Source: Bacteroidales bacterium (GTDB taxonomy: Bacteria; Bacteroidota; Bacteroidia; Bacteroidales; DTU049). From it: DNA of 64,000 nucleotides. Positions 2,945 to 43,200 of this stretch are shown here, one piece after another; position 1 is the stretch's first letter, and the number at the start of each line of letters is the position of its first letter. The position numbers were made by a program, and so were the translations under genes. The notes under the pieces were generated by a model, which ran no database searches, was not told where the DNA came from, and saw nothing but the letters and a program-made list of their open reading frames with translations. The stretch spans positions 9,013 through 73,012 of the forward strand of contig JAAYOU010000039.1 in assembly GCA_012520175.1 (NCBI GenBank), read 5' to 3'.

Positions 2945-3273
2945 ATCGCAGTTTGAAAGCGACTGTCGCCACGTAACTATCTATGTATCAACAACTTAGG
3001 AGGAACCGCCACACAAAACTATTGCCGCTGTAAACACCTGAGTATCAAGGACTTAGGCGGGCGGACACAAAAAGCTACTTCTGCCACGTAACTACCTGAT
3101 TATCAATGAGTTACGCCACCATTTCGACGCGACTCAATGAGCGGCAACCATGCAACCACCTGATTATCAGCAACTTACACAAACAAAGCGAGCGAACAGC
3201 GAGCCACAACTAAAAACTCAACACTAAGCACTAAAAACCACCTCGCAACTCCCTGACTATCAATAGCTTATAT
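2945..3273 (+). repeat. Modular extragenic repeat array, locus A (5 units of the 29-nt TGATTATCA palindromic element plus a terminal module)
   Basis: Units at 2972-3000, 3029-3057, 3087-3115, 3151-3179 and 3244-3272, all in the same orientation. Consensus is YRYAACYN-NN-TGATTATCA-R-NNNN-TTASR. The best copy is 3087-3115, CGTAACTACCTGATTATCAATGAGTTACG, with 7-bp outer arms CGTAACT/AGTTACG. Spacers are GC-rich (GCCGCC, GGCGG). The module CCACAACT...CACTAAAAACCA at 3204-3240 is shared with loci C and D. The last unit ends 2 nt before the stop codon of minus-strand gene 3274-6084. Related sequence (CAAGCGAG, ACTAAAAAAC, TTTGAAAG) may extend the element left to about 2850. Confidence 0.85.
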
Positions 3274-7004: not shown

Positions 7005-7682
7005 ATGTACGCAATTGTAGATATAGCTGGACAACAATTTAAAGTTAACAAAGCTGGAAAAGTTTATGTTCATCGTTTGCAAGCCGAAGAAGGCAGCCAA
7101 ATAGAACTAAAAAACGTTTTATTAATAGATAATGACAAAAATGTTGAAGTTGGGAAACCAACAATAGCTGGTGCACATGTATTGGCTGAAGTTGTAGAAC
7201 ATTTAAAAGGCGACAAAGTATTAGTTTTCCACAAAAAACGTCGTAAAGGTTATCAAAAGATGAACGGACATCGTCAATATCTTACACGATTGAATATTTT
7301 ATCAATTGTTAAAGACGGTGTAAGCCTTACTGGAGACAATGCTCCTTCTGTAAAAAAACAAGTAAAAGAAGCAGCTCTAGCAAAAACAAAGAAAGAAAAA
7401 ATTGTTGCTAATAAAGAAGTTGAAAAAGAAGTTACTGCTGAAAAGAAAGCTGCTCCTAAAAAAACTACTACAACAAAAACAGCAGAAAAAAAAGCTGATA
7501 CCACTACAAAAAAAGCAACTACTACTACAGCTAAAAAAACAACCTCTACAACTAAAAAAGCAACCACTACAACTAAAAAAGCAACTACTACTACAAAGAA
7601 AGATGCTACTACAACAACTAAGAAAACAACAGCTACAGCAAAAAAAGAAGATGGAGATAAAAAATCAACATCAAAGGAATAA
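7005..7682 (+). CDS. rplU: 50S ribosomal protein L21 with a long Lys/Thr/Ala-rich C-terminal extension
   Basis: MYAIVDIAGQQFKV...HRQYLTRLNI is a canonical L21 domain (~103 aa). It is followed by ~120 aa of low-complexity KKATTTT-type repeats. Confidence 0.95.
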   Translation: MYAIVDIAGQQFKVNKAGKVYVHRLQAEEGSQIELKNVLLIDNDKNVEVGKPTIAGAHVLAEVVEHLKGDKVLVFHKKRRKGYQKMNGHRQYLTRLNILSIVKDGVSLTGDNAPSVKKQVKEAALAKTKKEKIVANKEVEKEVTAEKKAAPKKTTTTKTAEKKADTTTKKATTTTAKKTTSTTKKATTTTKKATTTTKKDATTTTKKTTATAKKEDGDKKSTSKE

Positions 7683-7715: not shown

Positions 7716-7970
7716 ATGGCTCATAAAAAAGGTGTCGGAAGTTCAGATAACGGTCGTGAATCCCAAAGTAAACGCCTTGGCGTAAAAATTTATGGTGGTC
7801 AAGTTGCAAAAGCAGGCAACATAATCGTAAGGCAACGAGGAACCAAACATCATCCAGGTGAAAATATAGGAATGGGCAAAGACCATACTTTATTTGCACT
7901 CGTTGATGGAATTGTTGAATTTAATAAAACAAGAAACAATAAATCAGTAGTAAATATTAAGCAAATTTAA
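7716..7970 (+). CDS. rpmA: 50S ribosomal protein L27
   Basis: [24 protein letters not shown]...[26 protein letters not shown] is a textbook L27 sequence. Confidence 0.97.
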
Positions 7971-8001
7971 TTTTTACCTGCTTAAAAAAAAGGTTACTGT
8001 A

Positions 8002-8035
8002 AAAACACTTTTCTAATTGAAAAGTGTTTTTTTTG
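8002..8035 (+). terminator. Rho-independent terminator after rpmA
   Basis: 12-bp stem AAAACACTTTTC (8002-8013) / GAAAAGTGTTTT (8019-8030), loop TAATT, followed by a T-run to 8034. Confidence 0.8.
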
Positions 8036-8071
8036 TTGATGTTTTTTTAGATGTTTAATGCTCTGTCGCTG

Positions 8072-8268
8072 CATAACTATTTGATTATCAATATTTTAGA
8101 CAGACGCACCCATACAAAACAGCCCGCCACCACGTAATTACTTGAGTATCAGTGGTTTAGACATGACGGGTGCCGCCTCGTAACTATCTGATTATCAACA
8201 ACTTACGCGGAGCCGTCGCCAACACGAAGCCCGCCACCACGTAACTAATTGATTATCAGTATATTACT
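8072..8268 (+). repeat. Modular extragenic repeat array, locus B (4 units)
   Basis: Units at 8072-8100, 8133-8161, 8179-8207 and 8240-8268 in the same orientation, with GC-rich spacers. B2-B4 with their spacers (8133-8268) align by eye with C2-C4 (10296-10430). The array ends 21 nt beyond the stop of minus-strand gene 8289-9005. Confidence 0.85.
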
Positions 8269-8288
8269 ATTAAAAAACATACGTAAAG

Positions 8289-9005
8289 TTAGTGAGTTAT
8301 TTTATAGTTTAATTTTTTCCTCATTTTACGAATCTCTTTTTTAGACAAAAAACTTCTTTTTACAAAATCTTGATACAGGTATGGTTGTTCAAAATAGTCG
8401 TAATCAGCTCCTTTTGCATAAATTGGATTATTTATTCTATATGTTACAAAATAATTTGATATATCAAAACACATGAAGATATTTTCATATAACTTCGCTT
8501 TATTTTTATCTTGAATTTGAAATTGAATAGTTTTTAAGCCTAAAGTATCTTTAAAATTTATTGGCAAATTTGTTGCGAAAATAATTTCCCAGTCTTGAAA
8601 ATTGTAAATGAAGTATTTCTTAAAATTAGAATAGCCATAAATATTTTTACTAGATTTTTTAACAATTTCAAATAAAAATGAATACCATTCTTCAAAATCT
8701 AAATTTTCAAACCTTGAAAAATCGTATTTTTCATATACACTATCTTCTATAAGATTAGTAGGAACAGCTATTATAACAAACACGACATAATTATTTTTTT
8801 CATTTTTATTAAAATCTCTATTTAAATATTTTAAATAATATTGGAAAGCTATTTTTATTTTAAAATCAATGTCCTTTAGTTCAATAGCATTTATAGTTAC
8901 TGAATCTGTTGTTTCATCTACCTTGTTGACAAAAAATTGCCCATATATCGGTGTGCATAAAACACTTAATATAATTAAAAATAAAATTTTGCTTGCATTA
9001 ATCAC
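8289..9005 (-). CDS. Hypothetical secreted protein (paralogue of the N-terminal part of 8998-10110)
   Basis: N-terminal signal-like segment ILFLIILSVLCTPIYGQ. The block YSFLFEIVKKSSKNIYGYSNFKKYFIYNFQDWEIIFATNLPINF parallels FSLFYDVIIETLHKSKRSFFSDYKYYYNHNDIDVLISSKAPINF in the upstream gene. Very AT-rich by eye. Confidence 0.6.
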   Translation of the reverse strand: MINASKILFLIILSVLCTPIYGQFFVNKVDETTDSVTINAIELKDIDFKIKIAFQYYLKYLNRDFNKNEKNNYVVFVIIAVPTNLIEDSVYEKYDFSRFENLDFEEWYSFLFEIVKKSSKNIYGYSNFKKYFIYNFQDWEIIFATNLPINFKDTLGLKTIQFQIQDKNKAKLYENIFMCFDISNYFVTYRINNPIYAKGADYDYFEQPYLYQDFVKRSFLSKKEIRKMRKKLNYKITH

Positions 9006-10110
9006 GATTTCCCTCTCCTTCTATTTTATAATCTGTGTCCGGATAAATTATCTCAATTTCTGTTAAATAAACCTCTATAATTGCTGTTGTATTTTTTTTA
9101 ACTTTAATACCTTGACATGTATATGCGCTATATCCTATACTTTTAATTGTAACATTATAAACACTAGGATTCAACTCTAAAGAAAATTCACCATCATGAT
9201 TTGACATAGCATGATTTATTAATGTTCGATCACTATATTTTTTTACTTTTACTAAAGCAAAACGAACAGGTTCTTTAGTTTCCAAATCATATAATTTACC
9301 AATTATAGCAGAAGTGTCTGAATCAATATATTTAACTTTAAAGAAACTTCCTTCTTTTTCAATAACCTTATATCCATAATAATCTAATTCTGTTGATTTC
9401 GTAATTTCAACAGTCTTATAAAAATTATCACAATAAGATGTATCTGCAGGATTGTAAAAATGCAAAGCTTGATAAGATTCATCTTGATTAAACTGGTAAT
9501 ATGTAGCATTAGGAAAATAAGATGTAATAGTATCATTGTATTTTTCCATATCCCCTAGTTTCAACTTAGCCAAGTTTTTTTTTAAATAAAAATTAATTGG
9601 TGCTTTAGAACTAATTAACACGTCAATATCATTATGATTATAATAATATTTATAATCTGAAAAAAAAGATCGCTTTGATTTGTGAAGTGTTTCAATAATT
9701 ACATCATAAAAAAGAGAAAAATCTTGTTCTCTTGAAAAAATTGTATCCTTGTATAAAGAATCTATATAAGATTCTAAGAAATCAGACTCATGGCTTAATG
9801 AGCTTATAGCCCAATTAGGATGTATTTCAATAGAAATAAACATATCACTATTCATATGCAAGCTTCTTTTATTGCATACATTTATATGATTTATTAGCAT
9901 TTCTGATAAAATAGGGGTTAGAGTATCAATTTCACTAACATTGTATAAAACGTAATTTTTATATACATCTACATTGTAATTTTCATAATCGTAATTTTCA
10001 TAATCAATGTATCTCTTTTGTTTTTGGCTAAATAGTGTAGTTGGAATTACAAGTATAGCAATCAAAAAATATAATATTGCCTTATTTTTATCTTTTAACT
10101 TTATAATCAT
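8998..10110 (-). CDS. Hypothetical secreted protein with a C-terminal carboxypeptidase-regulatory-like (CarboxypepD_reg) beta-sandwich
   Basis: Signal/TM segment AILYFLIAILVIPTTLFSQ. The C-terminus IGKLYDLETKEPVRFALVKVK...SNHDGEFSLELNPSVYNVTIKSIGYSAYT fits the CarboxypepD_reg pattern. It overlaps the downstream gene by 8 nt. Confidence 0.6.
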   Translation of the reverse strand: MIIKLKDKNKAILYFLIAILVIPTTLFSQKQKRYIDYENYDYENYNVDVYKNYVLYNVSEIDTLTPILSEMLINHINVCNKRSLHMNSDMFISIEIHPNWAISSLSHESDFLESYIDSLYKDTIFSREQDFSLFYDVIIETLHKSKRSFFSDYKYYYNHNDIDVLISSKAPINFYLKKNLAKLKLGDMEKYNDTITSYFPNATYYQFNQDESYQALHFYNPADTSYCDNFYKTVEITKSTELDYYGYKVIEKEGSFFKVKYIDSDTSAIIGKLYDLETKEPVRFALVKVKKYSDRTLINHAMSNHDGEFSLELNPSVYNVTIKSIGYSAYTCQGIKVKKNTTAIIEVYLTEIEIIYPDTDYKIEGEGNRD

Positions 10111-10251
10111 GTATAGGTGTTTTTATCAATCATCTTTATACTCAATTATTTTATTTAAGGTTTCTTTACTATAATTTTTACTCCATAATTCTATCTTAAT
10201 AAACTGTTAACAGCCAAAAACAGACTTTTTATTTCCAGCAATGATTTTCAA

Positions 10252-10551
10252 CACAACTCTTGATTATAAACGTTTTACGCGAAGCAGCCGTGTCGCACAA
10301 CTAGTTGATTATCAGCGGTTTAGACAGGGCGGGCGCCGCCTCATAACTACTTGATTATCAGCAAGTTACACAGAGTCGCCGCCAATGCGAAGCCGCCACT
10401 TCACAACCCATTGATTATCAGCACTTTACGCAAGCAAGCGAGCTAATAGCGAGCCCCAACTATGTCTTATCCTGAAATAGGTTGACACTAAAAAACTAAA
10501 AACTAAACACTAAAAACTATTTCCCAACCACCTGATTATCAACAAGTTACA
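10252..10551 (+). repeat. Modular extragenic repeat array, locus C (5 units, terminal module and ACTAAAA heptamer tract)
   Basis: Units at 10252-10279, 10296-10324, 10342-10370, 10402-10430 and 10523-10551. The module GAGCCCCAACT...CACTAAAAACT lies at 10454-10518. It includes tandem ACTAAAAA/ACTAAAA/ACTAAAC/ACTAAAA at 10487-10519. The array lies 39 nt beyond the trxB stop and upstream of gene 8998-10110. Confidence 0.85.
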
Positions 10552-10589
10552 CAGCAATCAAAACAACAAAAAAATCGTTGTTTACGACT

Positions 10590-11540
10590 TTAAATATCTC
10601 TTGTTGCGATAAAACGCTCTGCATCAATAGCAGCCATGCAACCTGAGCCAGCAGCAGTAATAGCTTGTTTGTAATTAATATCTCTAACATCGCCAGCAGC
10701 AAAAACGCCTTTAACGCTAGTGCATGTGGAGTCTGGCAAAGTTTTTATATAGCCATTTTCGAACATTTCTAATTGTCCTTTAAAAATTTCAGTATTAGGA
10801 GTATGACCAATAGCTACAAAAACGCCATCAAGCTCAATTTTAAGTTCTTCGTTAGTTTTTACGTTTTTCACAACAATAGCTGTAACATTTTTAGCAAAAC
10901 CTTTTTTTTCGCCTAGAATTTCAACAGGAATTGAGTTCCAAACAGGCTCAATATTAGGAGTATTAAAAACTTTTTGCTGCATCGCTTTTGAAGCTCTAAG
11001 CTCATCGCGTCTATGAATTAGATAAACTTTTTTTGCTAAATTTGATAAATACACAGCTTCTTCAGCAGCGGTATCGCCACCACCAATTACACAAACAACT
11101 TTTCCTTTATAGAAAAATCCATCACAAGTAGCACAAGCCGAAACACCAAATCCGTTGTATTCTTTTTCGCTAGGCAAGCCCAACCATCTAGCTGAAGCGC
11201 CAGTAGCAATAATTACAGTTTCAGCCAATATATTTTGACCTCTATCGTCAGTAAGGCTAAAAGGGTATTTTGAAAAATCAACTTTTTCTATAAGTCCTGA
11301 TCTTATTTCTGTCCCAAACCTCAGTGCTTGTTTTTTTAAATCTTCCATCATTTCTACGCCTGTAACGCCATCTGGATATCCCGGAAAATTTTCAACATCA
11401 GTAGTAATAGTCAATTGCCCTCCAGGCTGCAAGCCTTCGTATAAAACAGGTTTTAATTCAGCTCTTGAAGAATAAATTGCTGCTGTGTATCCTGCGGGTC
11501 CAGAGCCAATAATCACACATTTTCTTTTTTCAATTTCCAT
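10590..11540 (-). CDS. trxB: Thioredoxin-disulfide reductase
   Basis: GSGPAGYTAA FAD motif, redox-active CATCDG, GGGDTAAEEA NADPH motif, 316 aa. Confidence 0.95.
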   Translation of the reverse strand: MEIEKRKCVIIGSGPAGYTAAIYSSRAELKPVLYEGLQPGGQLTITTDVENFPGYPDGVTGVEMMEDLKKQALRFGTEIRSGLIEKVDFSKYPFSLTDDRGQNILAETVIIATGASARWLGLPSEKEYNGFGVSACATCDGFFYKGKVVCVIGGGDTAAEEAVYLSNLAKKVYLIHRRDELRASKAMQQKVFNTPNIEPVWNSIPVEILGEKKGFAKNVTAIVVKNVKTNEELKIELDGVFVAIGHTPNTEIFKGQLEMFENGYIKTLPDSTCTSVKGVFAAGDVRDINYKQAITAAGSGCMAAIDAERFIATRDI

Positions 11541-33648: not shown

Positions 33649-36600
33649 ATGAAGAAATTAATTTTAGTATTGATAGTTTTAGCATTGCAAACAAGCATAA
33701 TTGCTCAAGATTTCAAATACAGCAAACAAAAAGCTATTTTGCTTGAAAACAAAGGGCAGCTAAGCAATACAGATGGCTCTTCTGCTGACAATGTGCTTTA
33801 TTACATGATAACTCCAAACATGAATTTTTACATAACAAATTCTGGAGTTACCTACGTTTTTAAAGGACATTTCTTTAAAGAGGATTCATCATCTGTAAAT
33901 TCAATTAATTTATTAAAAGATAAAGAGCAGATTACAAAATGGCATCGTGTTGATGTTGATTTAGTAGATGCAAAAATTGAAAAATCTTCTATAAATCAAA
34001 AAAATCTAAATACTGAACATGTTGTTAATTACTACAACCATTTAATGCCCGATGGAGTTGGAGATTTAATACCTTTGGAAAATGTTACATTAAAAGATGT
34101 TTATCCGGGAATAGACTGGGAATTTGTGGTTAATGATGAACATTTAGAATATAATTTTATTTTGAATAAAAAAGCTGATATATCTAAAATAAAGCTGCAT
34201 TACAAAGGACAAGACAAAATTAGTTTGGAAAATAATAGTGTAAAAATTGAAACAAAATATGGTTCTTTAATTGAAAAAGAAATTGTTTCTTTTACTTCAA
34301 AAGGAAGAAACGCTACAATAAACGCAGTGTTAAAAGACAATGAATTAAGCTATAATCCTGTTTCTGTACCAAAAATACTTGATGATGAAACATTAATTAT
34401 TGACCCACCCTTAATTTGGTCAACTTTTTATGGAGGTTCTGGAAGCGAAAATAATGTAAAAATGACTATGATTAAAAATTCTGGTGATATTTTCGTTGCA
34501 TTAACAACAAGTTCTAGCAATTTTCCTTTACTTTACCCAGGAGGCTCATCATATTATGACAATACTTATCATGGTAACAATGATATAGCTCTTTTTAATT
34601 TTAATAAAAATGGCGCTTTAAAATGGAGTACTTATTATGGAGGTTCTAGTGGAGATTCTGCTTTTAACCTATGTAATAATGGTCTTATTGTTTTTGTAGT
34701 AGGTAGAACTCGTTCAGCTGACTTCCCTACTATGGCACCTCCATCAGGTGGATATCTTGACCCTACATTAGGTGGATACAAAGATGGATTTATTATTGCT
34801 TTTAATGCTCTTACACGTCAAAGATATTGGGCTACATATTTTGGTGGATCTTTTCCTGATATAGTAGAAGGTTATACTGAAGAAAATACCACAGCTTGCG
34901 CGTGCAAAGGAATTAATCTATATATTACAGGAACTGCTTCTTCAAATGATTTTCCTATTGTAACTTTTCCTGGTGCAGACACTAAAACAACTATGAACGA
35001 TGGTGCATATCCAAACCCAGCTTCTGGTAGATATTTTACAGATGCTTATCTAAGCCTATTTACTATTGCAGGTGCTATGGGAACCGAAATACAACTAGTA
35101 TGGAGTACCTTTGTTGGTGGTAAAAACAGAGATATTGATCCTGAAATTTTATTAGATAACGCAAACAATATAACATTGGCATATACTACCACTGATGGCG
35201 GAGATATAACTCAAATAAATACATTAAGCCCTCCAGGTTTTGTTGGAACATATAATAATGGTATTGATATTGCTTTTACTAGATTTGACTCTAACAAAAA
35301 ACTTGTATGGCAAACATATATAGGCAGCACAGGTGCTCAAACTTATGCTCAAGCCATGGTAAATAATAGCAGTAATGAATTCTTTGTTGCTGGATCAGCT
35401 AGAGGAACTATAACAACAAGAAATGATATTGGAGCAAGCTATTATTACAATACCAAAAAAGGTAGTGTCAGTGATGCTTTTTTATTAAAATTTAATTCTA
35501 ATTGCCAACTAGTATATGGTTCTTATTGGGGAGGAAAAACTAACCAAAACTATTCTAGAGGATTATGTTTAGATAAAAATAACAATTTATTACTTGTAGG
35601 TCAAACTCTAGGTGCTACAGGCAATGATGGCTTAATTTACAAACCATATCCTGGCTCTTATGTTGATAGCACTTATAACGGCAGCAATGATGGAGTAATT
35701 TTAAAGCTATCTCCTACATTAAGCCCAATATGGGGTACTTATTTTGGAGGAAGTGGAGGTGAGGTTATTTATGATATAGAAGCAAATAATGACGATGAAA
35801 TATTCATTTTAGGAAGAAAAGAGGATGCTAATGCCACAGGCTTTCCAATTGTAAACTTACCAGGTGCGTATAACGACTCTCCCCCCTCAAGCAGTGATGC
35901 TTTTTTGGCAAAATTTATCCCCTGCCCTACAAATTTCGGCTCTATATCATCAGGAACAGACTCTGTTTGCTATGGACAAAAAGGTACAATTAGTGCAGAT
36001 GGAGGTAATGCATATTTATGGAGTACTGGAGAAACAACAAGTTCTATAACACCTACTATTGTATCTGATTCAACATTTATTGTTACATCAATAAACACAT
36101 TAGGTTGTGAAGATAAAGACACTTTTAATATTAAAGTAAAACCTCTCCCTGTTTTGAGTTTTACAGGCACAACCACTGTATGCTTAGAAGATACAGTTAA
36201 ATTGACTGTTAGCGGTGGAACATCTTACCTATGGGAAACAGGACAAACTACACCAAATATTTCTTTTGTGCCAACAATAAGCGATTATATTTCTGTTACC
36301 GCAACAAATAATTTTGGATGTTCAAAAAAAGATAGTGTTGCCTATACTGTTCATCCGCTCCCAACACCAAGCATTTCAGGTGCAAGTGAAATCTGCTCAA
36401 AAGACACATTAACACTAACAGCATCAGGTGGAGATACATATTTGTGGTCTAATGGAGTAATCACAGCTATAAATAACATTGTTTTAGATACATCTGGCAA
36501 TATTAATTATTATGTAATTGCAACAAACACACATAATTGCAAAGATACAGCCTTTCATACCTTTACAGTTAATCCATTACCTGTAATAGATTTAGGTAAC

Positions 36601-38373
36601 GACACTTCTATTTGCGATGGCACTAGCATTATTCTTGATGCTGAAAACCCTGGCTCTACATATGCATGGAATACAACCGAAACAACACAAACAATTTCAA
36701 TTAATACTACTGGAGAATATTCTGTAACAGTAACTGACGTTAACTCCTGCAAAAGCAAAGACACAATGAATCTTGTTGTGCTACCTAATGCCGATGCAAC
36801 AATTACAGATGTGCCTGCAATTTGTATAGACGGAACTCCATTCACATATATTGTAGCTGAAGCAGGCGGAACTTGGACAGGAACAGGAATTTCTCCTACT
36901 GGAAACTTCGACCCAAGTATTGGTACCGGTAATTATGAATTTATTTACACTATTGCAGGACAATGCGGCGATGCTGACACAACGAATATTACTGTTAATC
37001 CTCTGCCTATTGTAGATTTAGGCAACGATACTACTATTTGTGATGGCACTAGCATTATTCTCGATGCTGAAAACCCTGGCTCTACATATGCATGGAATAC
37101 AACCGAAACAACACAAACAATTTCAATTAATACTGCTGGAGAATATTCTGTAACAGTAACTGACGTCAACTCTTGTACGAACAAAGACACAATGAATCTT
37201 GCTGTGCTACCTAATGCCGATGCAACAATTACAGATGTACCTTTTATCTGTATAGACGGAACTCCATTCTCATATATTGTAGCTGAAGCAGGCGGAACTT
37301 GGTCAGGAACAGGAATTTCCCTTACAGGTGATTTCGACCCAAGTATTGGTGTTGGCGATTATGAATTTATTTATACTATTGCTGGAAAATGTGGCGATGT
37401 TGATACAACGAATATTACAGTCAATCCTTTGCCTGTAATAAATTTAGGCAATGACACATCTATTTGTGATGGCACTAGCATTATTCTCGATGCTGAAAAC
37501 CCTGGTTCTACATATGCATGGAATACAACCGAAACAACACAAACAATTTCAATTAATACTGCTGGAGAATATTCTGTAACAGTAACTGACGTCAACTCTT
37601 GTACGAACAAAGACACAATTACTATTGCTGTGTTGCCTAGCGCTGATGCTACTATTACAACAGATGTACCTTTTATATGTATGGACGGTGCTCCTTTTAC
37701 CTATATCGTAGCTGAAACTGGTGGAACTTGGGCAGGAACCGGTATTTCTACAACCGGAGATTTTGATCCAAGCATTGGTGCTGGAACTTATAATTTCACT
37801 TACACTATTGCTGGAAAATGTGGCGACACCGATGCTACAAGCATTACTGTTGGAGAGTTACCTATCATAAACTTTATCGCTACTAATGAAACTTGTGAAG
37901 ATAAAAGTGATGGATCATTATTGCTAAATATTACAGGTGGAACTTTACCCTACCAGTATTTTCTTGATTCTATACCTATTTCTGAATCAACAAATAATTT
38001 GATGCCGGGTAATTATCTACTTACTGTTATAGACAATAATAATTGTTCCCAAAGCGATAGTGTATTTATTTTAGCAGGGGATTTTCCTTGCGATGAAAAT
38101 GTTAGATTCTTTATCCCCAATATTTTTAGCCCCAACAACGATAATAACAATGATGTGTTATATGTGAAAAGCGAATTTATTAAAAATTTAGAATTTATGA
38201 TTTATGATAGATTTGGGAATGTCGTTTTTGAATCTAAAGATATTAATATAGGCTGGGACGGAAAATATAAAGGAGAACCTGCTGAAGAAGGTGTATATTT
38301 CTGGGAAATTAAAGCCATTATGATAGACAATACAGAATTAAATAAAATCGGCAATACAACCCTAGTCCGTTAA
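33649..38373 (+). CDS. Large T9SS-secreted adhesin-like protein (SBBP beta-propeller repeats, Ig-like repeat modules, type-B gliding-motility C-terminal sorting domain)
   Basis: Signal peptide, then repeated W(S/A)TY(Y/F)GG... propeller motifs. Cys-containing ~70-aa and ~142-aa tandem modules follow. The C-terminus FIPNIFSPNNDNNNDVLYV...GWDGKYKGEPAEEGVYFWEIKA fits the TIGR04131-type CTD. Confidence 0.9.
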   Translation: MKKLILVLIVLALQTSIIAQDFKYSKQKAILLENKGQLSNTDGSSADNVLYYMITPNMNFYITNSGVTYVFKGHFFKEDSSSVNSINLLKDKEQITKWHRVDVDLVDAKIEKSSINQKNLNTEHVVNYYNHLMPDGVGDLIPLENVTLKDVYPGIDWEFVVNDEHLEYNFILNKKADISKIKLHYKGQDKISLENNSVKIETKYGSLIEKEIVSFTSKGRNATINAVLKDNELSYNPVSVPKILDDETLIIDPPLIWSTFYGGSGSENNVKMTMIKNSGDIFVALTTSSSNFPLLYPGGSSYYDNTYHGNNDIALFNFNKNGALKWSTYYGGSSGDSAFNLCNNGLIVFVVGRTRSADFPTMAPPSGGYLDPTLGGYKDGFIIAFNALTRQRYWATYFGGSFPDIVEGYTEENTTACACKGINLYITGTASSNDFPIVTFPGADTKTTMNDGAYPNPASGRYFTDAYLSLFTIAGAMGTEIQLVWSTFVGGKNRDIDPEILLDNANNITLAYTTTDGGDITQINTLSPPGFVGTYNNGIDIAFTRFDSNKKLVWQTYIGSTGAQTYAQAMVNNSSNEFFVAGSARGTITTRNDIGASYYYNTKKGSVSDAFLLKFNSNCQLVYGSYWGGKTNQNYSRGLCLDKNNNLLLVGQTLGATGNDGLIYKPYPGSYVDSTYNGSNDGVILKLSPTLSPIWGTYFGGSGGEVIYDIEANNDDEIFILGRKEDANATGFPIVNLPGAYNDSPPSSSDAFLAKFIPCPTNFGSISSGTDSVCYGQKGTISADGGNAYLWSTGETTSSITPTIVSDSTFIVTSINTLGCEDKDTFNIKVKPLPVLSFTGTTTVCLEDTVKLTVSGGTSYLWETGQTTPNISFVPTISDYISVTATNNFGCSKKDSVAYTVHPLPTPSISGASEICSKDTLTLTASGGDTYLWSNGVITAINNIVLDTSGNINYYVIATNTHNCKDTAFHTFTVNPLPVIDLGNDTSICDGTSIILDAENPGSTYAWNTTETTQTISINTTGEYSVTVTDVNSCKSKDTMNLVVLPNADATITDVPAICIDGTPFTYIVAEAGGTWTGTGISPTGNFDPSIGTGNYEFIYTIAGQCGDADTTNITVNPLPIVDLGNDTTICDGTSIILDAENPGSTYAWNTTETTQTISINTAGEYSVTVTDVNSCTNKDTMNLAVLPNADATITDVPFICIDGTPFSYIVAEAGGTWSGTGISLTGDFDPSIGVGDYEFIYTIAGKCGDVDTTNITVNPLPVINLGNDTSICDGTSIILDAENPGSTYAWNTTETTQTISINTAGEYSVTVTDVNSCTNKDTITIAVLPSADATITTDVPFICMDGAPFTYIVAETGGTWAGTGISTTGDFDPSIGAGTYNFTYTIAGKCGDTDATSITVGELPIINFIATNETCEDKSDGSLLLNITGGTLPYQYFLDSIPISESTNNLMPGNYLLTVIDNNNCSQSDSVFILAGDFPCDENVRFFIPNIFSPNNDNNNDVLYVKSEFIKNLEFMIYDRFGNVVFESKDINIGWDGKYKGEPAEEGVYFWEIKAIMIDNTELNKIGNTTLVR
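36571..37851 (+). repeat. Three in-frame tandem repeats (426, 426, 429 nt) inside the adhesin gene
   Basis: Repeat starts at 36571, 36997 and 37423. Each encodes NPLP(V/I)(I/V)(D/N)LGNDT.ICDGTSIILDAENPGSTYAWNTTETTQTISINT.GEYSVTVTDVNSC...ITV. The 159-nt cores 37035-37193 and 37461-37619 differ at one position by eye. Confidence 0.95.
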
Positions 38374-42519: not shown

Positions 42520-43200
42520 GGCTATGTCCTGAAAAGCATGTTATATTTTATTTCGCTTGTTGTGTTTTCGGTCGTTTCATATGGTTATGGTAACGTAAAG
42601 TGCTGATAATCAAGCAGTTACGTGGCTATGACTGCGGCGGCGTAAAGTGCTGATAATCACATAGTTACGTTTGCCCGCCTGCTTGGTGTCCGCACCAGCC
42701 TAAGTCGTTGATAATCAGAGAGTTGCAAGCCGCCGCCGCTTTGCCTGTCTTGCTTTGCTTGCCCGCGACCACCTAAATTGCTGATAATCAACAAGTTGTG
42801 TGTACTAGCTGATTTAAATTGGCTTTTCTGCAAAATTTTTTGTAAATTTTAAACTACAAAAAATTTTGCAGAAAAAATTAGCGGATAAGTTTTTTTGTGT
42901 ACCCTGTTTCGCTCGAGCCTGCGTAAACCACTGGTAATCAAGCAGTTACAAGTCGCCGACCCGTCCACCCACCTAAATCATTGACAATCAGGTAGTTACA
43001 CAACGCCGCCACAACTCAACACTAAAAACCATTTTGATTTCGGACTTTCCGCCATTGCAAGTCATTGATTATCATACAGTTACAGAGCAGCTGCGACTTT
43101 CAAACTTTACAAACCCTTCAACAAGTTCAGGGCATCGCTTTACAAACTAAGACCCAGCAAGTCCTTAATAAAAAAGCACTTACAAATCAATCCGTATTTT
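42520..43200. repeat. Modular extragenic repeat array, locus D (7 units in mixed orientation, terminal module, inserted hairpin and decayed half-units)
   Basis: Six units read TGATAATCA on the + strand at 42594-42622, 42641-42669, 42699-42727, 42772-42800, 42922-42950 and 42972-43000. One unit is in the opposite orientation at 43056-43084, preceded by the module CCACAACTCAACACTAAAAACC (43009-43030). The left edge CTATGTCCTGAAAAGC (42522-42537) resembles locus C 10460-10480. Positions 43085-43200 hold degenerate half-units. The array starts right after the stop of the symporter gene. Confidence 0.85.
42824..42875. repeat. Perfect 21-bp inverted repeat (52-bp hairpin/miniature element) inside array D
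   Basis: TTTTCTGCAAAATTTTTTGTA (42824-42844) and TACAAAAAATTTTGCAGAAAA (42855-42875) are exact reverse complements around the 10-nt loop AATTTTAAAC. Abutting flanks are AATTGGC (42817-42823) and AATTAGC (42876-42882). Confidence 0.9.

Follow-up and report, generated by a model that had tools for sequence, protein, structure and literature searches.

A possible BIME-like mosaic repeat family and a lineage-specific gene pair at the rpmA-trxB junction of an uncultured Bacteroidales bacterium

Repeated intergenic sequences are a feature of several described systems that bear comparison with the subject of this article, which is a pair of repeat arrays, designated B and C, and the two genes that lie between them at the junction of rpmA and trxB in a 64-kb stretch (hereafter the window) of core chromosome that belongs to an uncultured Bacteroidales bacterium of biogas fermenters. 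In T4-type phages, promoter-early stem-loop (PeSL) elements reportedly act as mobile regulatory cassettes, an account attributed to Arbiol and co-workers in 2010. In Escherichia coli, repetitive extragenic palindromic (REP) elements and bacterial interspersed mosaic elements (BIMEs) include a class, BIME-1 (RIP/RIB), that is bound by the integration host factor (IHF). REP and BIME elements are dealt with in PMC2817692 and PMC3333891. [quoted passage not shown] The questions raised by the locus described here are what its repeats are, and how the two genes came to lie between them.

The best explanation taken as a whole, and one that is judged evenly poised between right and wrong, treats arrays B and C as two members of a BIME-like mosaic family of intergenic repeats that is lineage-specific and present in high copy number, and the gene pair between them as a lineage-specific insertion. 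The parts of the locus, with positions counted along the window, are as follows.

7716-7970, plus strand: rpmA, encoding ribosomal protein L27; core gene that borders array B on its near side
8001-8031, plus strand: intrinsic terminator hairpin of rpmA, a 13-pair stem followed by a T run; a homologous hairpin is read in the related genomes L010 and L012
8067-8272, plus strand: array B, with a short head, four units, linkers S1, S2 and S3 and no tail module
8074-8098, 8135-8159, 8181-8205 and 8242-8266, plus strand: the units of array B
8136-8267, plus strand: block of array B (units 2-4 with their linkers), homologous to 10299-10429
8289-9005, minus strand: open reading frame ORF238, putative signal peptide, no Pfam family, GC 22.5%
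8998-10110, minus strand: ORF370, putative signal peptide, N-terminal domain paralogous to ORF238, CarboxypepD_reg tail, GC 25.1%
10254-10554, plus strand: array C, with a degenerate unit, three units, a linker with tail and a last unit, and no head
10254-10277, plus strand: degenerate unit of array C
10298-10322, 10344-10368 and 10404-10428, plus strand: the three middle units of array C
10299-10429, plus strand: block of array C, homologous to 8136-8267
10434-10524, plus strand: linker of array C with the AAAAACT-rich tail
10525-10549, plus strand: last unit of array C, which abuts the trxB terminator
10590-11540, minus strand: trxB, the core gene beyond array C (Pyr_redox_2, E 8e-52)

A preliminary description of this DNA had pictured the two arrays as lying in the same orientation, with three-unit blocks that align together with their spacers, and this picture is borne out. 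The two blocks are 78.8% identical over 132 bp with one gap (pairwise E 1.6e-28), and the 17-nt spacers that it quoted agree at 14 of 17 positions. Within the alignment a 96-nt ungapped run is 81% identical, and the longest exact match between B and C is 14 bp. A repeat search recovers eight copies of a 29-nt unit, four in each array and all on the plus strand, where the start-to-start spacings are 61, 46 and 61 nt in B and 46, 60 and 121 nt in C, the step from the last copy in B to the first in C being 2056 nt. B and C also form the best-scoring pair of arrays in the window, at 109 bits against 62 or fewer for every other pair. Array B has a head and lacks a tail, array C has a tail and lacks a head, and the end of B is 22 bp from the stop codon of ORF238. 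The rest of the same account of the interval also stands: ORF238 and ORF370 are the sole reading frames between the arrays, both on the minus strand with an 8-bp overlap; their GC contents are the two lowest of the 48 genes in the census, the others ranging from 27 to 41% around a window mean of 32.3%; they share a paralogous domain (BLASTP E 3e-6, 34% identity over 64 aa); residues 269-349 of ORF370 match CarboxypepD_reg (PF13620, E 6.4e-9); both N-termini resemble Sec signal peptides by eye; and the flanks are core genes, rplU-rpmA on one side and trxB on the other. What does not fit is its second reading, in which each gene simply acquired a 3' array, since the overlap points to one operon, of which array B marks the single 3' end, while array C lies at the 3' end of trxB.

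The arrays are also subject to change between strains. In the strain variant L142 (positions 495-908, compared with 10111-10589 of the window) array C has gained one unit and an S1 linker, has lost its tail and ends in a hybrid unit, and this version of the array aligns with B over 196 bp. The genes that flank it in L142 are about 97-98% identical to those of the window, yet array C has been remodelled, and the rearrangement indicates crossovers at the units.

Fundamental to the family is a unit that can be written YAAnnnnYTGATWATCARnnnnTTR. When the window is scanned with the pattern YAANNNNYTGATWATCARNNNNTTR, allowing at most one mismatch, 20 units are found against 0.02 expected, a number that none of 100 shuffles reached, and 19 of the 20 fall within four arrays, A, B, C and D. 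The unit is 25-29 bp long and dyad-symmetric, with the consensus C-R-Y-AAC-Y-nn-Y-TGATTATCA-R-nnnn-TTA and a 5' start of either CGTAAC or CACAAC. Units are 66-90% alike, are separated by spacers of 13-37 nt, and in A, B and C all carry a central T on the plus strand. An array is a polar string of four to seven such units with C-rich linkers between them, to which may be added a short head (AAAGTTTGAAAGT...) and an AAAAACT-rich tail (...AACACTAAAAAC...). In alignment, both the sequence and the order of the linkers are kept across arrays A, B and C, the strain variant L142 and the related organism L222, so that the repeated entity is the whole array of some 200-300 bp. The two remaining arrays, which belong to the same family and flank core genes, are these.

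2960-3270, plus strand: array A, with a head (AGTTTGAAAG...), five units and a tail module as in array C, between two convergent genes
42596-43082, minus strand: array D, with six to seven units in the opposite orientation, flanked by the genes for an SSF transporter and a TPR histidine kinase

Among the 15 intergenic gaps of at least 60 bp in the window, the four that are greatest in length and in GC content are the ones filled by the arrays; they comprise both of the convergent gaps, two of the ten tandem gaps and none of the three divergent ones. Many assemblies end inside arrays, as is expected of a multi-copy repeat. Inspection of the arrays by eye shows neither terminal inverted repeats nor target-site duplications, and no helical phasing of the units is evident. 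The tail module common to C and A consists of AAAAACT / AACTAAA heptamer runs (10491-10519 and 3208-3238). The halves of array D are separated by a perfect, very AT-rich 21-bp inverted repeat with a 10-nt loop (42824-42875), which may be a bidirectional terminator.

What, then, does the unit represent? The position of the arrays at the 3' ends of genes, their GC-richness within an AT-rich genome and the quasi-palindromic form of each unit would all suit an element that acts as RNA, in which transcribed arrays serve as structured 3'-untranslated elements, as terminators or as a protein-sponging small RNA with repeated hairpins, and the absence of a canonical terminator after ORF238 would suit it too. 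Such an element is nonetheless very improbable. Searched against Rfam at the gathering score, the whole window yields no match, and at E values up to 10 the region 7950-10600 has the rpmA terminator hairpin as its sole match. The folding z-scores of the arrays are weak, from -0.6 to -2.5, and array orientation is inconsistent with respect to transcription. Covariation is missing both within units, where complementarity at the variable symmetric positions equals random expectation (the product of base frequencies, over 359 environmental units and those of the window), and between neighbouring units, where it likewise equals expectation (170 pairs). Same-side identity between neighbouring units, on the other hand, lies well above expectation, for example 0.55 against 0.28. 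The absence of compensatory change together with shared same-side bases is the pattern of iterated protein-binding sites and not of hairpins, and the unit would on these grounds be the recognition site of a dimeric DNA-binding protein.

A structured RNA was accordingly rejected on the Rfam result, the weak folding and the lack of covariation. A CRISPR-like array was rejected as well, because the spacers are conserved between arrays and the units just 66-90% alike, as was an attC-like folded site, for which both the consensus and the complementarity signal are absent. Resemblances to known sites (the Fur box, the FNR site, the DnaA box, dif, loxP and hix) are in each case partial or have the wrong spacing. 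A fixed orientation of arrays relative to the flanking genes, which holds for all four in the window, fails in L222 and was dropped.

The best candidate for the binding protein would be a member of the IHF/HU family. In every strict unit the right half reads TATCA[AG]-N4-TTA and the left half is its reverse complement, so that each half fits all nine specified positions of the proteobacterial IHF consensus WATCARnnnnTTR. The strings WATCAANNNNTTR and WATCARNNNNTTR occur in two papers on IHF (10.1101/382655, PMC11724364). The match is treated as a lead only, but if it is followed, such sites, strung together where transcription units end, could form a bent nucleoprotein block that separates neighbouring units of transcription. 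A literature search with raw sequence returned unrelated matches only, such as the FabT operator, and a keyword search for an intergenic palindromic repeat family in Bacteroidetes found nothing.

The case for an insertion relates to the same junction in other genomes. The best TrxB matches among species genomes, which are annotated as Acetofilamentum sp. or as metagenome-assembled genomes of uncultured Bacteroidaceae and uncultured Bacteroidales, are just 74-78% identical to the TrxB of the window, and the nearest that retain synteny are L008, L010 and L012, which represent three species (TrxB 76-77% identical). In these the order is a TonB-dependent receptor gene, a DUF4249 gene and trxB, followed by rpmA and rplU on the opposite strand, the contig of L012 stopping at the rpmA terminator. 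The convergent trxB and rpmA are separated by spacers of 175-410 bp that contain neither of the two genes and no units. The synteny check that the preliminary description had suggested thus finds the 2-kb segment absent from all three, and the conservation of the rpmA terminator hairpin fixes the edge of the insertion on the rpmA side. The comparison supports the ORF238/ORF370 pair as a probable lineage-specific insertion at an ancestral rpmA|trxB junction, relative to these nearest genomes. In 1.2 Mb of sequence surrounding trxB in 80 further species of Bacteroidota, the unit itself does not occur. Another short repeat, GTGAACTCTGAACACTGAACAAGGAAGTGTGAAGTTTGAAGTAA, occurs just downstream of trxB in L008 (3195-3400, where it is present twice), L009 (5315-5370) and L012 (9295-9340), and its GAAGTTTGAAGT part resembles the head of the window arrays.

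Within the species itself the segment is now fixed in the sampled population, with no sign of moving. The contigs that encode the exact TrxB, L27 or ORF238 proteins derive from several fermenter projects, and wherever they reach far enough the layout is the same in 22 of 22 contigs with an identical L27 and in 12 of 12 with an identical ORF238. Over the 2,619-bp segment, all contigs that cover it in full match the window at 99.96-100% identity, and look-ups of the exact TrxB, L27 and ORF238 proteins and of their variants revealed no presence/absence polymorphism. The divergence between strains is of similar size in ORF370 and in trxB, so the segment is older than the strain split and not a recent arrival.

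The proteins encoded by the segment have almost no relatives. In 5.8 billion clustered proteins ORF370 has only a strain copy, 96% identical, and ORF238 likewise has none apart from a near-identical strain copy. Searched exhaustively with HMMER against 1.84 billion representative proteins, the N-terminal domain of ORF370 gives a single remote match, P0003 (E 4e-4), a signal-peptide protein whose gene lies directly downstream of a Toxin-JAB1 polymorphic-toxin C-terminal domain (L281, 3-1362). The position immediately after a toxin C-terminal domain is the usual one for an immunity gene, so that an immunity-like role for the ORF370 family becomes a lead, and the putatively secreted proteins of the operon may be immunity-like. 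No immunity family matched, P0003 being the one remote match. An AlphaFold2 model of ORF370 made without an alignment has a mean confidence (pLDDT) of 33 and is unusable.

The unit is not confined to this genome. A scan of environmental sequences with a pattern that required two units gave 55 viral and at least 120 metagenome loci; among the 120 metagenome loci listed, which range in GC content from 24 to 63%, 62 have three or more units, the maximum by the strict pattern being 30. Neighbouring units in the environmental loci share one orientation in 272 pairs and differ in 62. Two layouts are seen. The first is a long array, exemplified by L191 (1630-2990), a phage- or plasmid-like contig in which about 35 units take up 1.3 kb of non-coding DNA, much as iterons or a centromere would, with a gene for a small Rho_N (SAP-like) domain protein downstream. 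The second layout comprises unit pairs with centres 40-51 bp apart, which in the phage-like contigs L090, L121, L122, L188 and L159 follow one gene module's terminator and precede the next one's promoter. L090, L122 and L188 carry GP88, DUF932 and RuvB-like genes, and there a unit pair separates each module's terminator from the next sigma-70-like promoter. In cultured phage and plasmid collections, BLAST searches with the unit and the arrays gave nothing or marginal partial matches, one of which, in the Azobacteroides phage ProJPt-Bp1, is a single site.

Two of these contigs, L121 (8551-8793) and L159 (2900-4600), are about 90% identical and differ by a module of about 570 bp with two small reading frames. 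In L159 the module is bounded by two directly repeated unit pairs, and at the corresponding place L121 has a single hybrid pair, of which the left flank matches that of the first pair in L159 and the right part matches the second pair. By its sequence this is the signature of an empty site in another lineage. A similar arrangement to that of the window is found in L222, where two arrays that are 87% identical over 118 bp flank two small reading frames.

How, then, might the segment have arrived? In the proposed sequence of events a single operon of two AT-rich genes with almost no relatives would have been acquired at the ancestral rpmA|trxB junction. Recombination of the incoming DNA at a pre-existing array would have left a copy on either side, comparable to attL and attR, and arrays B and C would be sister copies made locally. 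In favour of recombination at an array are the mutual best match of B and C, the division of head and tail between them, the architecture of L222, the strain remodelling and the L121/L159 pair. As a route of acquisition it is plausible but unproven, with a probability placed short of the even mark.

A stronger version of the same idea is that of an active cassette system, in which the arrays are sites for a site-specific recombinase encoded elsewhere in the genome and modules are captured and excised, as with integron attC sites, rAID-1 clusters and the pdif modules of Acinetobacter plasmids. To this belong the absence of the segment in relatives, its bounding by homologous arrays in direct orientation, the head-bearing B and tail-bearing C that would be expected of attL- and attR-like hybrids, the shared architecture of L222 and the hybrid pair of L121. 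An exact identity of 14 bp is too short for efficient RecA-dependent exchange, and any exchange between B and C would therefore need a site-specific factor. The location of the only remote homologue of ORF370 beside a toxin domain points the same way, as do the rAID-1 clusters, which are low-GC orphan immunity genes with repetitive intergenic sequences (10.1101/471110). Against it, the 64 kb of the window encode no integrase, transposase or recombinase; core genes, too, are bordered by arrays (A and D); in 22 contigs, drawn from several projects, neither a polymorphism nor an empty site nor a circular junction was seen; the R''/R' consensus of attC is missing from the units, which show no selection for a folded site either; and the segment is as old as the strain split. 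An active system is consequently held to be distinctly unlikely. More ambitious still, and a long shot, is the proposal that the unit is the recognition site of a new recombination or architectural system shared by uncultured Bacteroidales chromosomes and many phage- and plasmid-like elements, with modules gained and lost at unit pairs and arrays. This would be a cassette-boundary system distinct from attC, with no adjacent integrase, of which the rpmA-trxB segment would be one fixed product.

The cassette reading of the preliminary description therefore divides. That the segment was gained is favoured by its absence in L008, L010 and L012, its lowest GC contents, its few relatives and the B/C match; that it can be amplified or excised through the arrays receives no support from the missing empty site, junction and recombinase, the 14-bp limit on identity and the fixation in sampled contigs, and ongoing excision or amplification is unsupported. 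The bracketing by arrays is real but not specific to the segment, as A and D show. As to the single empty-site array that it had suggested looking for, none was found at rpmA-trxB in this species, L008, L010 and L012 are without any unit, and the signature is seen in L121/L159 only.

Several considerations weigh against the explanation preferred here. The lack of a nearby recombinase, the placement of A and D beside core genes, the uniform layout of the sampled contigs, the age of the segment and the shortness of the longest B-C identity count against recombination at the arrays. The two IHF half-matches of a unit overlap on the central TGATWATCA, a geometry that one IHF dimer could not use on one site; the IHF consensus derives from Proteobacteria; and the window contains no IHF/HU gene, the binder being a candidate only. 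The orientation of units relative to flanking genes is inconsistent, C and D being antisense to their tandem neighbours and the L222 arrays sense. The segment-free genomes are distant, so that those lineages may instead have lost the segment, and in four further near relatives trxB is followed downstream by another gene. With the view limited to 64 kb, the true nearest relative of array B may sit elsewhere in the genome. Finally, four arrays spread over 15 gaps would, by our own combinatorics, give one or more neighbouring pairs in 64% of cases. This last figure also favours coincidence, according to which a small non-autonomous mobile repeat of the MITE (miniature inverted-repeat transposable element) or REP type landed independently in two neighbouring gaps, and the genes are old, fast-evolving and lost in the relatives compared. 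The dispersal of the family, with four arrays in 64 kb, the breaking of many assemblies within arrays, the mere 79% identity of B and C and the distance of the relatives all agree with it. It is opposed by the clear mutual best match of B and C, which is repeated in the two arrays of L222, by the fact that the genes bracketed are exactly the two of lowest GC, by the lack of evident terminal inverted repeats and target-site duplications, and by the short trxB|rpmA junction common to three species, which would need loss in a common ancestor or repeatedly. Coincidence is thus unlikely, but it is an account that carries real weight.

Beyond the locus, the window also encodes recA, dnaJ, grpE, ligA, uvrA, secDF and ribosomal protein genes. 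The product of rplU ends in a long C-terminal extension with much K, T and A, for which imperfect 21-24 bp and 45-66 bp repeats code (7472-7648). A 426-bp repeat is present in three tandem copies (87% matches) at 36563-37826, within the coding sequence of a 1574-aa protein that has SprB, Ig-like and CHU_C domains, the last a type IX secretion signal.

If the unit is indeed a protein-binding site, this would be, to our knowledge, the first BIME-like mosaic repeat family described in Bacteroidales, and would offer a sequence handle on a DNA-binding factor apparently common to hosts and phages. If recombination at arrays brings in genes, it would represent a route of gene gain without a linked integrase and could account for orphan, perhaps immunity-like, genes between core genes. 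On a practical level, the arrays break metagenome assemblies and could pass for CRISPR arrays or non-coding RNAs.

With regard to known systems, the likeness to the iteron or centromere-like arrays of plasmids and phages lies in the direct repetition, from 4 to about 35 times, of a partly dyad-symmetric site of about 25 bp, as L191 and L105 illustrate. Those are replicon-specific and present as one locus per replicon, whereas the unit is common to many unrelated contigs and, in the genome of the window, lies at many chromosomal loci. The PeSL cassettes share with the unit the presence of repeated regulatory motifs between gene modules that are gained and lost there, as L121 and L159 show for the unit, but their sequence is different and a PeSL holds a promoter and a stem-loop, whereas the unit pairs of the phage-like contigs sit between a terminator and the next promoter. 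Integron cassettes resemble the locus in having genes without known relatives, deviant composition and repeated sites in one orientation; they differ in that here there is no adjacent integrase, nor any Phage_integrase-type protein in the window, that by eye the units have no match to RYYYAAC...GTTRRRY and show no selected folding, and that the repeats flank core genes too.

The rAID-1 clusters come from the same bacterial order and are similar, by description, in their repetitive intergenic sequences, in their co-oriented genes of low GC content (here two on the minus strand, of 238 and 370 codons) and in the possible immunity-like family suggested by P0003. They part from the locus in their XerD-like recombinase, of which the 64 kb encode none, and here there are only two genes, which overlap and so have no repeat between them, and the repeat family is dispersed over the chromosome. 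The comparison with REP and BIME elements shows differences of its own: the units of the window are in direct and not alternating orientation, the core of the unit is AT-rich without a selected stem-loop or GTAG/CGTC tag, no RAYT (Y1 transposase) is encoded in the 64 kb, and the IHF-like match is within the unit itself and not in a linker. What is shared is the status of a high-copy extragenic repeat at the ends of genes, with 19 of 20 units in four intergenic arrays; short palindromic units with conserved linker motifs, mosaic order and variable unit number; a link to IHF, suggested in the window arrays by the consensus match alone; and a proneness to recombination that also breaks assemblies.

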